Positions 5,119 to 32,943 of a DNA stretch of 64,000 nt are shown piece by piece. The stretch is from Eledone cirrhosa (taxonomy: Eukaryota). The notes under the pieces were generated by a model, which saw only the letters and a list, made by a program, of their open reading frames with translations, was not told the DNA's origin and ran no database searches. The DNA is taken from the NCBI GenBank assembly GCA_964016885.1, contig OZ024742.1:329964001-330028000 (forward strand), given 5' to 3'. Both the position numbers and the translations under genes were made by a program. The stretch's first letter is position 1. Every line of letters begins with the position of its first letter.

Positions 5119-7230
5119 AACCCACTATTAGATGCATTTGAGCAGGACCTTATGAACTTAATCCTTAAAATTAAATTCAAAGGACGCAACACCAACAGCA
5201 AATTACAGAAAGATATAAAAAAACTACTGGACGACCTTAAAAACACCAAAGGAATTGTAGTAAAAGCGGACAAAACATCAAACCTGTACACTATGGATTG
5301 CACTACATACAACAACTTCATTCGAAAAGAATTACATAAAAAATATAGAAAAACGAGTGAAGTAACCCTTAAGCACATCAATGATGAGGCATGCGAAATA
5401 GTGAAAAATCTCGGAATCGAAGATAGGACAGGACCACTCTTACCGGCGGTACCCACTTTCAATCTTAAGGACCACAAGGTAAACTTTGATAATGACCCTA
5501 AAATTAGATTAATCTGCCCCTCTAAATCAGATATAGGTAAAATAAGCAAATATATCTTAGATAGAATCATCCCCCAAATTAAGGCTAAGGTTAACATTAA
5601 ACTCTGGGGGAAGACCCAAGAAGCAATAAGATGGTTTAATAGCATTAGCAATAAGAATAAATCTAAGTTTATCCAGTTTGATATCGATGAATATTACTCA
5701 TCGATATCACCTGAAACTTTGAATAGAGCCATTAAGTTTGCTAAGGATAACTCCGACCTTACAAACGATGAAATTAAGATTATATTAGAAGCTAGGAAAA
5801 CTATAGTCAAATTTGAGAACAGTTATTGGGTACGTAAAGATAGACCCTCTAACTTTGACATAACAATGGGCTCTAACGATTCGGCGGAAATAACTGATAT
5901 TGTGGGGTTATTTATCGCCTTTAGACTCCAGGAAAAATTCAGCAATCTCCACGGCGGAATATACCGCGACGATGTTCTCCTCCTAGCTAAAAACCTTAAT
6001 AACCAAAAACTAGAAAAACTACGCAAAGATATAAGAAAACTACTACTCGAAATAGGACTAACTATAACATATGAATACAACCTTAAAGTAGTTAACTTCC
6101 TGGATGTCACACTCAATTTAAACTCTGGTTTGATTAAACCGTTTCATAAATTGAATGAAAATCTCAAATACGTAAATGTTGGGTCTAACCACCCCATCTC
6201 TATAATTAAATCTATCCCTAAAAATATTTCCCTTAGAATCTCGGGTCTATCTTCTAACATACAAGTATTTAAGGATCACGCCGAGTACTACGATAACGCC
6301 CTTAGTAAAGCAGGCTACCTCAACAAAATAGAGTACATAGATGGGAACAATCAAAACACCCAAAATAAATCCCACATAAGTAGATATAATAACACAACAC
6401 CAAACCACACTTACTACCATAGTATGCACACCAGTAAACCAACAAACAAAACTAATAGAAAGCGATGCAAAGAGTACTTATGGTATAACCCCGAATACAA
6501 TAGCTCCATTAGTACAAATTTACCAGTACTCTTCTTTAAAATAATTAAAAGACATTTTCCCACATCACACAAATACCACAAAATCCTAAACCCTACCACT
6601 ATAAGACTGTCATACTCTACAGCGTTAAACCTTGAACAACACATAAAAAAGATCAATACTAGAAGGTTAAACGAAAACACTAAGAACTTAAGTACAAAGA
6701 ACCCCAAAAAAACAGTAGACAATACACTACAGAACATAAATAAACCACACCTAAGTTCGTCCGCAATACTACTCCAGAGAAAACCCAACGTACACAACTG
6801 TAACTGCACCTATCCTGACAACTGCCCCCTCGGCAATAACTGCCTAGAAAAAAATATTATTTATAAGTGTACCATTAAATCCGGAGGCAACGAGTGGTAT
6901 TACGTGGGATCAACGGCAACATCGTTTAAATCTCGATTGTATAGGCATTCTTACTCAATAAAACACCAGAGCCAAAGAAATGTAACAACTTTAGCAGAGA
7001 AAGCTTGGACGCTCAGGGATAGCAATCAAAAGTTTACCCTAAAATGGGAAAAATTAGCTAAAACCCAAAGCTTTTCCAGGAGCCAAAATTTCTGCAAATT
7101 GTGTAATCTTGAGATTTATTACATAATCACACACAAGAAGAAACTGCTGAATAACAGAATTGAACGAACATTATTCTGCCGTCACAGAACTAAAACCCTT
7201 TTTTCCCACTACAAGCCGAATATTACATAA
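5092..7230 (+). CDS. PLE reverse transcriptase + GIY-YIG endonuclease, N-terminally truncated
   Basis: Motifs ADKT, FDIDEYYSSI, FDITMGS, YRDD, VNFLDVTL, WYNP, CNC..CPLGNNCL, IIYKC..YVGST..R..H, CKLC. The first 9 codons derive from the inverted arm; native sequence starts at 5119. Confidence 0.93.
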   Translation: MSFNYFKEENPLLDAFEQDLMNLILKIKFKGRNTNSKLQKDIKKLLDDLKNTKGIVVKADKTSNLYTMDCTTYNNFIRKELHKKYRKTSEVTLKHINDEACEIVKNLGIEDRTGPLLPAVPTFNLKDHKVNFDNDPKIRLICPSKSDIGKISKYILDRIIPQIKAKVNIKLWGKTQEAIRWFNSISNKNKSKFIQFDIDEYYSSISPETLNRAIKFAKDNSDLTNDEIKIILEARKTIVKFENSYWVRKDRPSNFDITMGSNDSAEITDIVGLFIAFRLQEKFSNLHGGIYRDDVLLLAKNLNNQKLEKLRKDIRKLLLEIGLTITYEYNLKVVNFLDVTLNLNSGLIKPFHKLNENLKYVNVGSNHPISIIKSIPKNISLRISGLSSNIQVFKDHAEYYDNALSKAGYLNKIEYIDGNNQNTQNKSHISRYNNTTPNHTYYHSMHTSKPTNKTNRKRCKEYLWYNPEYNSSISTNLPVLFFKIIKRHFPTSHKYHKILNPTTIRLSYSTALNLEQHIKKINTRRLNENTKNLSTKNPKKTVDNTLQNINKPHLSSSAILLQRKPNVHNCNCTYPDNCPLGNNCLEKNIIYKCTIKSGGNEWYYVGSTATSFKSRLYRHSYSIKHQSQRNVTTLAEKAWTLRDSNQKFTLKWEKLAKTQSFSRSQNFCKLCNLEIYYIITHKKKLLNNRIERTLFCRHRTKTLFSHYKPNIT

Positions 7231-30699: not shown

Positions 30700-32943
30700 A
30701 ACTTTTTACTTGAAGACTTCGAGAAAGACCTTTTTAATTTAATTAAACACCTCAAATTTAAAAAGTATAAATCCGTCTTTCAAAAGGACCTTGATTCTAC
30801 CCTATTGGACCTAAAAAAGTCTAAAAAAATCCATGTCCACTCGGACAAAACTGGTAACTTGTATCATATGGATATTGAACATTATAATGAGTTCATATAT
30901 AAAGAACTCAGAAAAAATTATAAAAAATCTAATAATGCGTCACTCACCAACATCAACAACAAAACACACAACATAGTAAAAAAACTAAACATTGAAGATA
31001 GAACTGAACCTTTGGCATTGAAAAGACCACACTTCAACCTGAAGGATCATAAATCAAACTTTAACTCAAATCCTTCTATTAGACTTATATGTCCCTCCAA
31101 ATCAGATATTGGAATAATTAGCAAAAACATTTTGGATAGAGTCATCCCACAAATAAGAAAACACGTTATTTTACCACTCTGGGAAAACACCTCCCAGGTA
31201 ATTAACTGGTTTAAAAATATTAGATGTAAATCTTCTGCTTCATTTCTACAATTTGATATAGATAATTACTATTCTTCTATATCACCTATACTCCTGAACA
31301 AAGCATTGATATTTGCTAAAAATAGATCTAACTTAACTTTGGATGACATTAATATTATTACACATGCTAGACTAACACTTATTGAATTTCAGAATGAATA
31401 CTGGACCAGAAACACATATAGTAATCTATTTGATATTACTATGGGTTCAAGCGATTCCGCCCAAATTACTGATCTTGTGGGCCTCTTTCTCCTTTTCAAC
31501 ATAAATGCCTCCTTTCCCCACCTCAAAGGTGGTTTATATCGTGATGACTGTCTTCTTCTTTCTAACAACCTTAGCCTTTCAGAAATTGAAAAAAACAAAA
31601 AACATATTAGAACTTTCCTTAAAGACTATTATAATCTTCATATTACTTTTGAAAAAACAAGTAAAGTAGTAAATTTCCTAGATATAACTTTAGATTTAGC
31701 TACGGGTATCTACCAACCTTACCATAAACCAAACCAAAACTTACATTACATACACTCACAATCTAATCACCCTAAATCTATCCTTAAAAACCTTGCATAT
31801 AATATATCACTTAGAATTTCTAACCTTTCTTCTAACCAAGATGTATTTGATAAAAATGCGACCTTCTATAACGAAGCTCTAGATAGAAGTGGCCACAAAA
31901 ATAGATTAAAATATATACCTTCTACTAAAAATACTAAAAGCATACAACCTAATATTACCAACAAACACCAAATGAAAAGTACACACCTAAATGCCACCCA
32001 CACTATACCCCAAAATACCAAATCTTCTAATATAAAATATAGTAACTCTCAAAAAACTACTCATCATACAACTCTAATAAATATTAATAATAAAACTCCT
32101 AATAAAAATGATAAAACACCTAAATCTACAAATATAACTAAAAATGGTTGTGGTGAGATCATTAACATTAATCCTCCTAGTAAACATCACGATACAACCT
32201 ATAAAAATAATAAAAATAATAAACAACATAGAAACCGTAATAGACGGGTTACTTGGTATAATGCTCCATTTAATTTACAAATTAAGGATAATATTGCTAA
32301 AAAAATTTTTTATATCCTAGAGAAAAACTTCCCGCCAAACCACAAATACCATCAAATCTTAAATAGGTCTACAGTTAAATTCTCATACTCAACAACAAAT
32401 AACATAAAACAAAATATAAGTGCCTATAATGCATATAAATGTAAGAAAACCATAAGTATACCACCAGTACATCAAATTAACCATAATATCTCCTCAAATA
32501 CAGAATTAACGAAAGGTTGTAACTGTAGAAACAAAGCAAACTGCCCATTAAAAGGGAATTGTCTTGTTAACAACATAGTCTATAAATGTAATGTTAAAAC
32601 TAAAGATTCTATTTGCTCATATATAGGAGCTACCTCTAACAATTTTAAGACAAGATTTAATACCCACAAGCATAGTTTTAAAAATGCCGCACTGGCTAAT
32701 ACAACATCTCTAGCAGAAAAAATCAATAGTTATAAAAATAAGAATATAGAATATGATTTGACCTGGAGTGTGCTCAAAAGAGCCACCCCTTATCAAAATA
32801 ATAGAAATGAATGTAGATTATGTTCCCAAGAACTATTTGAAATAATGAAATCTAAGGATATCCTATTAAATAAACGACAGGAATTAATTATATCGTGTAA
32901 TCATAAACTAAAAAAAACATTTAAATATTATAAACCTAATTAA
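30700..32943 (+). CDS. PLE reverse transcriptase + GIY-YIG endonuclease, N-terminally truncated
   Basis: The frame is open upstream of the listed TTG (NFLLEDFEKDL...). Motifs SDKT, FDIDNYYSSI, FDITMGS, YRDD, WYNAP, CNCR..CPLKGNCL, YIGAT, CRLC. Confidence 0.93.
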   Translation, partial: NFLLEDFEKDLFNLIKHLKFKKYKSVFQKDLDSTLLDLKKSKKIHVHSDKTGNLYHMDIEHYNEFIYKELRKNYKKSNNASLTNINNKTHNIVKKLNIEDRTEPLALKRPHFNLKDHKSNFNSNPSIRLICPSKSDIGIISKNILDRVIPQIRKHVILPLWENTSQVINWFKNIRCKSSASFLQFDIDNYYSSISPILLNKALIFAKNRSNLTLDDINIITHARLTLIEFQNEYWTRNTYSNLFDITMGSSDSAQITDLVGLFLLFNINASFPHLKGGLYRDDCLLLSNNLSLSEIEKNKKHIRTFLKDYYNLHITFEKTSKVVNFLDITLDLATGIYQPYHKPNQNLHYIHSQSNHPKSILKNLAYNISLRISNLSSNQDVFDKNATFYNEALDRSGHKNRLKYIPSTKNTKSIQPNITNKHQMKSTHLNATHTIPQNTKSSNIKYSNSQKTTHHTTLININNKTPNKNDKTPKSTNITKNGCGEIININPPSKHHDTTYKNNKNNKQHRNRNRRVTWYNAPFNLQIKDNIAKKIFYILEKNFPPNHKYHQILNRSTVKFSYSTTNNIKQNISAYNAYKCKKTISIPPVHQINHNISSNTELTKGCNCRNKANCPLKGNCLVNNIVYKCNVKTKDSICSYIGATSNNFKTRFNTHKHSFKNAALANTTSLAEKINSYKNKNIEYDLTWSVLKRATPYQNNRNECRLCSQELFEIMKSKDILLNKRQELIISCNHKLKKTFKYYKPN

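Follow-up and report, generated by a model that had tools for sequence, protein, structure and literature searches.

Structure of the Penelope-like copies in the window

The window, a stretch of 64,000 nucleotides from Eledone cirrhosa (contig OZ024742.1), contains three ORFs of Hydra-type Penelope-like elements (PLEs), here called PLE1, PLE2 and PLE3, and (TA)n is found on both sides of each copy. PLE1 and PLE2 are independent young insertions of different families and share one layout: from 5' to 3', an inverted partial copy meets a 5'-truncated ORF at a junction, the 3' region after the ORF contains a hammerhead-like motif and ends in a one-sided extension, and (TA)n lies at either end. The features are the following:

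3306–5118, minus strand: PLE1 inverted arm, reverse complement of 6529–8343 (0 mismatches, 2 gap columns), with (TA)n adjoining on the left
5119–7230, plus strand: PLE1 ORF remnant, 703 stop-free codons with RT, CxCX5C linker and C-terminal GIY-YIG-type domain
7231–8453, plus strand: PLE1 3' region, with microsatellites
8187–8303, plus strand: PLE1 type I hammerhead-like motif with a long loop II, read by eye, core from 8192, predicted cut after 8298
27851–30697, minus strand: PLE2 inverted arm, pairing with 33927–37817
30698–32943, plus strand: PLE2 ORF remnant, 747 stop-free codons counted from the Asn at 30700
32944–37951, plus strand: PLE2 long 3' region, rich in microsatellites
37600–37754, plus strand: PLE2 hammerhead-like motif, read by eye, core from 37610, predicted cut after 37744
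57776–59437, plus strand: PLE3, the third Hydra-type ORF, with its 5' break near model codon 259

The alignment of each arm with its partner bears out the native starts of the original prediction. In PLE1, the first base beyond the arm match is 5119, which is base 1 of the Asn codon of NPLLDAFEQDL, and in PLE2 the first non-arm base is 30698, two nucleotides before the Asn codon of NFLLEDFEKDL, which begins at 30700. Both ORFs lack about 66 N-terminal codons, RWK being among those missing from PLE1; the arm contributes an in-frame ATG at 5092 to the PLE1 ORF, and the first in-frame ATG of PLE2, at 30868, is downstream of its DKT motif. The arms end in unrelated places, as had been claimed, with the partner beginning within the ORF of PLE1 (6529) and about 1 kb beyond the stop of PLE2 (33927). 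The right-hand partner in PLE2 is about 1 kb longer than the left arm, the surplus being inside a microsatellite block. The 3' regions end in extensions of 110 nt (8344–8453, PLE1) and 134 nt (37818–37951, PLE2) that have no counterpart in the arm and are followed by (TA)n. PLE3 starts at about 57776, straight after (TA)n, and has no inverted arm.

Relation to the Hydra clade and other known elements

PLE1 and PLE2 each match in one frame positions 66–704 and 69–704, respectively, of a profile built from 52 sequences, both window ORFs included. The RT and YVG/YIG motifs are present in the aligned ORFs, and DKG is modified to DKT in PLE1 and PLE2. The CxCX5C linker, as well as CxxC and CxH flanking conserved E and N, are found by alignment in the three copies. 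The endonuclease CCHH motif appears by eye to be absent, with a single Cys between IY and YVG in PLE1 and PLE3 and two Cys 9 apart in PLE2, the second of which is not conserved. In Pfam, none of the four proteins searched matched a family with E ≤ 0.1. The RWK-bearing region is missing from PLE1, from PLE2 and from the window, and the nearest relatives have RW-type motifs. A putative hammerhead core with stem I and a palindromic stem III can be read by eye at 8192–8298, 37610–37744 and, as a variant in PLE3, 60908–60946; the putative PLE2 motif has a 10-bp stem I and a long region in place of stem-loop II, with no clear stem II. These motifs were not among the best 150 of 262 Rfam matches, most of those listed being microsatellite noise.

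DKT, CxCX5C, the GIY-YIG-type domain and CxxC/CxH are shared with the Hydra clade of C-terminal EN+ PLEs as described by Craig et al. 2021 (PMC8557442), including Hydra-1_Obim and Penelope-13_HM. A 3' hammerhead-like motif and (TA)n targets are also common to both, and for Penelope-13_HM an inverted, 5'-truncated copy is listed at the 5' end, as in PLE1 and PLE2. The window copies differ from this clade in the missing RWK-bearing N-terminus, in their long hammerhead loop II regions, in native parts of 3.3 kb (PLE1) and 7.3 kb (PLE2) versus the usual <3 kb, and in extensions of 110 and 134 nt versus the 30–40 bp described for PLEs. The Poseidon element PAc of Anolis (Frangieh et al. 2024, PMC11167929) has in common with them a single RT + GIY-YIG ORF, a hammerhead and AT-rich targets, and its two adjacent 3' start points would account for extensions that occur at only one end. 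The PAc ribozyme overlaps the start codon, and reverse transcription begins within the ORF, whereas two Hydra-type relatives (L003 and L009) have a 3' terminus that maps to about 54 nt upstream of the ATG, outside the ORF. Penelope of Drosophila virilis and the Adineta vaga families (PMC2377424, PMC3846280) resemble the window copies in that direct and inverted arrangements vary, a 5' junction shows microhomology, unique 3' spacers are long (Pen1_Av) and the ORF has asparagine-rich inserts.

The breakpoint in PLE1, PLE2 and related copies

The two Asn residues align at about codon 67, so that the breaks fall within 2 nt of each other at the same homologous codon, as originally noted, in proteins that are indeed strongly diverged (41.7% identity over the whole ORF, 56% over the first 220 aa). 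The N-terminus is indeed longer in relatives, with 104–130 aa ahead of the DK motif in 85/120 homologues versus 50 in PLE1 and 48 in PLE2. The caveat that microhomology blurs the junctions also stands, 5119 and 30698 being only the latest possible break positions. Pro is present two residues before the Asn position in 182/262 anchored homologues; if this Pro was present here, the microhomology would be at most 4 nt in PLE1 and at most 2 nt in PLE2, the breaks would lie at −4 to 0 and −4 to −2 relative to the Asn codon, respectively, and they could be identical.

With breaks taken as uniform over 2,118 nt and a match as a pair within 2–3 nt, the chance of such a pair is 0.24–0.35% for two junctions, 0.7–1.0% for three and 1.4–2.0% for four, the PLE1 arm end included, for a pair picked after the fact in a many-window scan. 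For 11 pooled junctions, eight of them from outside the window, it is 12–17%, the genome-wide scan not yet being allowed for. Among copies reaching the region, 2/2 stop at the site in the window versus 0/9 elsewhere (Fisher p = 0.018, post hoc).

The genomic comparison included 13 loci from a scan of genome contigs, which are host-like contigs in MAG assemblies, represent other families throughout and are only 30–44% identical. One unbroken frame crosses the site in 9/9 related genomic copies that span codon ~67; short contigs among the 13 loci may be a collapsed consensus of many copies, with truncations hidden. Base-resolved junctions in relatives are located at model codons ~9, 23, 187–191 and 266, and others, placed from profile starts only, at 206, 381, 425, 634 and 650; none of these nine is within 40 codons of codon 67, and PLE3 breaks elsewhere, as had been stated. 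Similarly, 272 of the 413 homologous proteins with a profile hit, in which genomic and transcript source (P0002 and P0122 among them) are not told apart, read through model positions 55–80, and the internal starts of 161/413 are called start codons, which say nothing about breakpoints. None of the 29 proteins with a foreign N-terminal prefix, which may include frameshifts, begins between positions 62 and 80; five begin at 57–61, 6–10 codons upstream of the site, at a conserved motif where local alignments tend to begin. Same-family copies were not found among 414 homologous proteins, the best having at most 55% identity over at least 100 aa.

A splice junction at this codon, one of the causes originally put forward, is very unlikely. 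In this explanation a family-specific intron would end at the codon and the junction would be its 3' splice site. An AG directly precedes 5119 and another lies 1 nt before 30698 (background 6% and 12%), and PLEs can carry and retain introns (PMC2377424, PMC3846280). However, both AGs match the arm partner and are therefore arm-derived or microhomology; they are one codon apart in register, and of the other four junctions resolved to the base, that of L001 has an AG within 1 nt too. No intron was found in the nine spanning genomic relatives or, by eye, in three complete Hydra consensus sequences, and the introns described for Penelope and the Adineta vaga families are in the 5' UTR or at other ORF positions. 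Also, a retained intron would not halt RT at its acceptor, and spliced RNA would run into the upstream exon, which was not found in the window.

Even less probable is a 5' end set by ribozyme self-cleavage or by a circular or permuted monomer. Hammerhead-like motifs can be read in all three Hydra-type copies, and tandem PLE transcripts have been proposed to self-cleave (PMC4209133); however, the motifs sit at the 3' ends and not at this codon, which speaks against the suggested cleavage site. The predicted cuts after 8298 and 37744 lie 155 nt (PLE1) and 207 nt (PLE2) short of the 3' end, and in tandem full-length relatives the motif region is upstream of the ATG. A permuted unit would place the missing N-terminus at the 3' end, where a profile of the first 81 residues had no match (best off-target 0.9 bits). 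The permuted monomer had become a candidate through a peptide resembling YPFKS in the 3' end of PLE1; it was rejected because this profile had no match in any of the six frames and the frame of the peptide has a stop.

It is just as improbable that the N-terminus was lost in a common ancestor of both families, codon 67 being a natural start. Both ORFs are intact downstream of the site, where the predicted structure of a relative passes from coil to helix, and a quick-search tree of 39 retrieved homologues and the three window ORFs, built with no published Hydra references or outgroups, places PLE1 and PLE2 in one weak group (SH-aLRT 85, P0122 included), leaving the order among PLE1, PLE2 and P0122 unsettled. 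However, the N-terminus is complete in P0002 and in P0122, a member of that weak group, the lost part is predicted to be well ordered in the relative's model (RWK helix at residues 18–44, pLDDT >90 for residues 1–40), and the first in-frame ATG of PLE2 comes only after DKT.

A probable chance coincidence and the possibility of a preferred stop

Here it is proposed, with a probability of about 0.7, that the match at codon 67 is a chance coincidence between two ordinary truncated insertions whose stop position varies by copy. RT would have started near the 3' terminus of the element at a (TA)n target, run through most of the element and halted inside the ORF, and the inverted arm would then have arisen when the cDNA end folded back or was joined to a second cDNA via 0–4 nt of microhomology. 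The stop would differ from copy to copy, and the two long copies in the window would have happened to halt within 2 nt. Inverted 5'-truncated copies and heavy 5' truncation are typical of PLEs according to PMC8557442 and PMC3846280. Chance is favored because junctions scatter in relatives, PLE3 breaks near codon 259 and all nine spanning copies are in frame, and because the foreign-prefix proteins, the folding z-scores and the pooled p of 12–17% show no signal at the site. It is weakened by the window-level p of ~0.7–2% and the Fisher p given above; the five prefixed proteins that begin just upstream, the AG near both junctions and truncations hidden in collapsed contigs also count against it.

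The original prediction of a fixed point rather than random truncation thus gained no clade-wide support from the relatives, and in a form limited to one lineage it keeps a minor share of the probability. A recurrent, base-precise first-strand end inside the ORF, near codon 66 and common to families ~42% identical, is accordingly doubtful. Such a preferred stop or fixed RNA 5' end would lie just 3' of conserved Pro-Pro codons in the lineage holding PLE1 and PLE2. Possible causes are pausing of the RT where an A/U-rich template has a C-rich patch, a bound protein that acts as a roadblock, and an internal site of transcription start or RNA processing. As the two copies group together, if only weakly, the trait may be one of their own lineage, and the comparison loci are distant; the breaks are also compatible with an identical position (−4 to −2), and the site follows Pro-Pro in ~69% of the 262 anchored homologues. 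There is, in addition, a precedent for functional RNA sites in PLE ORF starts, as a Poseidon-clade protein depends on the first 172 nt of its ORF RNA, with RT starting 111–118 nt into the ORF (PMC11167929). However, in relatives that share the Pro-Pro patch, 9/9 copies continue through the site. The 3' terminus of L003 and L009 is outside the ORF, and a search of the 3' ends and the rest of the window gave no N-terminal coding piece, so that the geometry of Poseidon does not carry over. A bound-protein roadblock by analogy with PAc was rejected for the relatives, whose 3' terminus is upstream of the ATG. Full-length relatives have their natural 5' ends upstream of the ATG (related loci; Craig 2021 File S7), contrary to a fixed RNA 5' end at the codon.

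The structure that the original prediction would look for near this codon did not appear in relatives, since no conserved RNA fold flanks the site in nine of them (mean z around the site of +0.54, +0.95 and +0.94), where the lowest mean z was −0.72, at 120–40 nt upstream. The first 142–143 native bases, which cover only the 3' side of the breaks, had z = 0.04 in PLE1 and −1.30 in PLE2; the short fold windows miss long-loop hammerheads and are uninformative on those motifs.

No report of a recurrent intra-ORF breakpoint in Hydra-clade PLEs was found in the openly readable literature on PLE truncation, PLE breakpoints and octopus PLEs. How first-strand synthesis ends and inverted arms form in PLEs is described as unresolved in PMC8557442 and PMC11167929. 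If the preferred stop were real, a conserved cis-acting RT stop, protein footprint or RNA 5' end would trigger inverted-arm formation, giving a direct handle on how these structures form and a specific RNA site testable in vitro. As the evidence stands, the contribution of the window is two or three new, young Hydra-type families whose 3' regions are long, together with a coincidence.

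Hydra-type elements and their 3' regions

The DNA of the window is animal-type, A+T-rich and dense in microsatellites, and its three long ORFs represent one retroelement type.

5083-7230, long retroelement ORF of PLE1
30691-32943, long retroelement ORF of PLE2
57719-59437, long retroelement ORF of PLE3
8344-8453, one-sided extension of PLE1 (arm comparison)
37818-37951, one-sided extension of PLE2 (arm comparison)
8192-8298, hammerhead-like motif of PLE1, loop II about 70 nt
37610-37744, hammerhead-like motif of PLE2, loop II region >100 nt

No family was found for the ORF proteins in a Pfam search. 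The DNA is likely to come from a cephalopod, perhaps an octopus, although the named homologues that protein searches gave in Octopus vulgaris, O. sinensis and Argonauta hians share just 36-44% identity. Judged by their (TA)n flanks, 3' hammerhead-like motifs and protein motifs (DKT, CxCX5C linker, CxxC and CxH, no CCHH), the elements appear to match the Hydra clade of Penelope-like elements (PLEs) in the definition of Craig et al. 2021 (PMC8557442). According to the same source, PLEs typically show heavy 5' truncation, carry a 5'-truncated inverted copy at their 5' end and have a tail on one side only; it also lists an inverted 5'-truncated copy for the Hydra-clade element Penelope-13_HM, as in PLE1 and PLE2. 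Intact reading frames and near-identical arms mark the PLE1 and PLE2 insertions as young. The hammerheads of the Hydra-clade examples in File S2 of that work are compact, whereas loop II is unusually long in PLE1 and PLE2. The 5-kb microsatellite-rich 3' region of PLE2 (32944-37951), which precedes its hammerhead, resembles the long spacers of Pen1_Av. Compared with the left arm of PLE2, its right-hand partner has ~1 kb extra, through either duplication or an assembly artefact.

Junctions of PLE1 and PLE2

Aligned in inverted orientation, the left arm of PLE1 (3306-5118) and 6529-8343 show 2 gap columns and 0 mismatches, and the first base beyond the arm, 5119, starts the Asn codon of NPLLDAFEQDL. 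The PLE2 arm extends to 30697, whose partner is 33927; native sequence runs from 30698 and the Asn codon of NFLLEDFEKDL begins at 30700. The two Asn align, in ORFs only 41.7% identical overall; the first bases outside the arms map to codons 67.0 and 66.3 of a 706-position profile, and these break positions are upper bounds. Pro occupies -3 in 180 and -2 in 182 of the 262 anchored homologues (414 fetched); with Pro there also in PLE1 and PLE2, microhomology would not exceed 4 nt in PLE1 and 2 nt in PLE2, and the breaks could be identical. The additional N-terminal residues expected in relatives are present, 85 of 120 homologues having 104-130 residues before the DK motif vs 50 and 48 here, so about 66 codons are missing from PLE1 and PLE2; their loss in an ancestor is scarcely credible as the cause. 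PLE3 breaks elsewhere, beginning near codon 259 after (TA)n, and every factual statement of the original prediction was borne out. The elements themselves are ordinary; the shared break is real and its cause unproven.

In the confident predicted structure of P0007, a full-length relative (mean pLDDT 90.8), helix 68-83 begins at the site, where a coil ends, and the part lost includes the ordered helix 18-44 bearing RWK. The PLE1 arm contributes an in-frame ATG at 5092, and the first PLE2 ATG (30868) lies downstream of DKT. The truncated ORFs are probably non-autonomous.

If breaks fell uniformly over 2,118 nt, two of them would lie within 2-3 nt of each other with p = 0.24-0.35% among two junctions, 0.7-1.0% among three and 1.4-2.0% among four. 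The match is unusual for one window, but the pair was selected post hoc from a many-window scan; O. vulgaris alone is reported to have 336 recent Penelope-like insertions in 31 families (PMC13282606).

Comparison copies and possible causes

A genome-collection scan yielded 13 Hydra-type loci (L001-L013), 30-44% identical to the window ORFs, with L001 and L004 apparently one family and the short contigs possibly collapsed consensus. They are animal-type retrotransposon contigs inside assemblies labelled bacterial MAGs or symbiont, pointing to host contamination of that collection. Base-resolved arm junctions lie at codons ~9 (L001), 23 (L005), 187-191 (L012) and 266 (L010), and profile matches alone give starts at 206 and 634 (L011), 381 and 425 (L013) and 650 (L003); none of these nine (4 base-resolved, 5 profile-based) falls within 40 codons of 67. 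Nine genomic copies span the site, each in one frame, and 272 of the 413 homologous proteins matching the profile continue across positions 55-80. Among 29 foreign-prefix proteins, none starts at 62-80 and five start at 57-61. For the window's three junctions together with eight outside, which omit L003, the probability of one pair within 2-3 nt is 12-17%. A fixed point common to the whole clade is not supported; relatives' junctions scatter and 9/9 copies read through. Here it is proposed that the shared break arose by chance (probability about 0.72; this figure and the gradings of its rivals are judgements, not computed).

A preferred stop specific to this lineage is unlikely, although copies reaching the site region stop there in 2/2 cases in the window vs 0/9 elsewhere (Fisher p = 0.018); counted as junctions at the site, the figures are 2/3 vs 0/8 (p = 0.055). 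PLE1, PLE2 and the retrieved protein P0122 group weakly (SH-aLRT 85, quick tree), so PLE1 and PLE2 could share something that the comparison set lacks. The sole positive lead is the position of the site directly 3' of Pro-Pro codons, a C-rich patch; however, relatives carrying this patch pass the site, and mean z-scores for RNA structure across it in relatives are +0.54 to +0.95. With regard to the suggested fixed RNA 5' end, the Hydra clade does have a recurrent end, since the annotation of Hydra-1_Obim gives four copies that end at one site (PMC8557442, which end unstated). Its consensus begins ~170 nt before the ATG in the supplement, and neither consensus end is codon 67. Within the ORF, an RT start or a protein footprint is described for PAc, a Poseidon element of Anolis (PMC11167929), whereas the 3' terminus of L003 and L009 lies ~54 nt upstream of the ATG, so the PAc geometry is not transferable to Hydra-type relatives.

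In a survey of 100 nt upstream of the ATG in L002, L003, L004, L007, L008 and L009, five of these six full-length copies have the heptamer G[A/T]GCACT twice, at -85..-95 and -19..-32, and L007 has it once only, at -39. The insertion 3' terminus of L003 and L009 is ~30 nt after the first copy. The heptamer, a candidate cis-element for RT initiation, is also visible by eye in published Hydra consensuses (PMC8557442 supplement), and a variant occurs in the PLE1 extension near 8384-8394.

An intron at the site, the splice junction of the original prediction, is very improbable. AG precedes both junctions (backgrounds 6% and 12%), but these AGs match the arm partner and their register differs by one codon, making them jointly a second small coincidence. 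The PLE1 AG would be explicable as microhomology if Asn had been preceded by a Gln, Lys or Glu codon with AG as its last two bases, and Gln is the commonest residue there (63/262 anchored homologues). No intron occurs at the site in nine genomic copies or, by eye, in three complete consensuses of Craig et al., and no upstream exon was found within the window. Cleavage by a ribozyme, or a permuted monomer, has almost nothing to recommend it: the hammerhead-like motifs lie at the 3' ends, with predicted cuts at 8298 and 37744.

Inverted arms and neighboring palindromes

The architecture, junctions, missing codons and scatter of relatives' junctions are observed; the mechanism proposed for the insertions would involve priming at (TA)n near the element 3' terminus, synthesis that then stops inside the ORF, and an end resolved into the inverted arm. 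Near-perfect hairpins with short spacers at 38557-38681 and 54949-57776 agree with fold-back and with the self-priming put forward for PLEs (PMC3846280); two-cDNA joining is a possible alternative.

The palindrome at 54949-57776 (2.8 kb, near-perfect, spacer ~35 nt) has at its center, by eye, an apparent C-terminal endonuclease end of another PLE type. The 125-nt hammerhead-like hairpin at 38557-38681 precedes the element at 38770-39915, which has a 97%-identical copy in opposite orientation at 63035-64000; both are 5'-truncated, belong to another PLE type and contain Cys pairs in the endonuclease region. Nested inverted PLE-end fragments occupy 53733-55065, where an Rfam HH9 match scores 34.2 bits and so does not reach the gathering score (52).

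54603-54673, + strand, compact hammerhead
54128-54198, - strand, compact hammerhead

A possible decayed Hydra-type relic at 25004-25192 (model codons ~86-149, E = 0.008) is too eroded for a breakpoint. Older palindromic elements lie beside (TA)n at 653-1258, 9438-10076, 10759-11036 and 23338-23449, the first two being related to one another.
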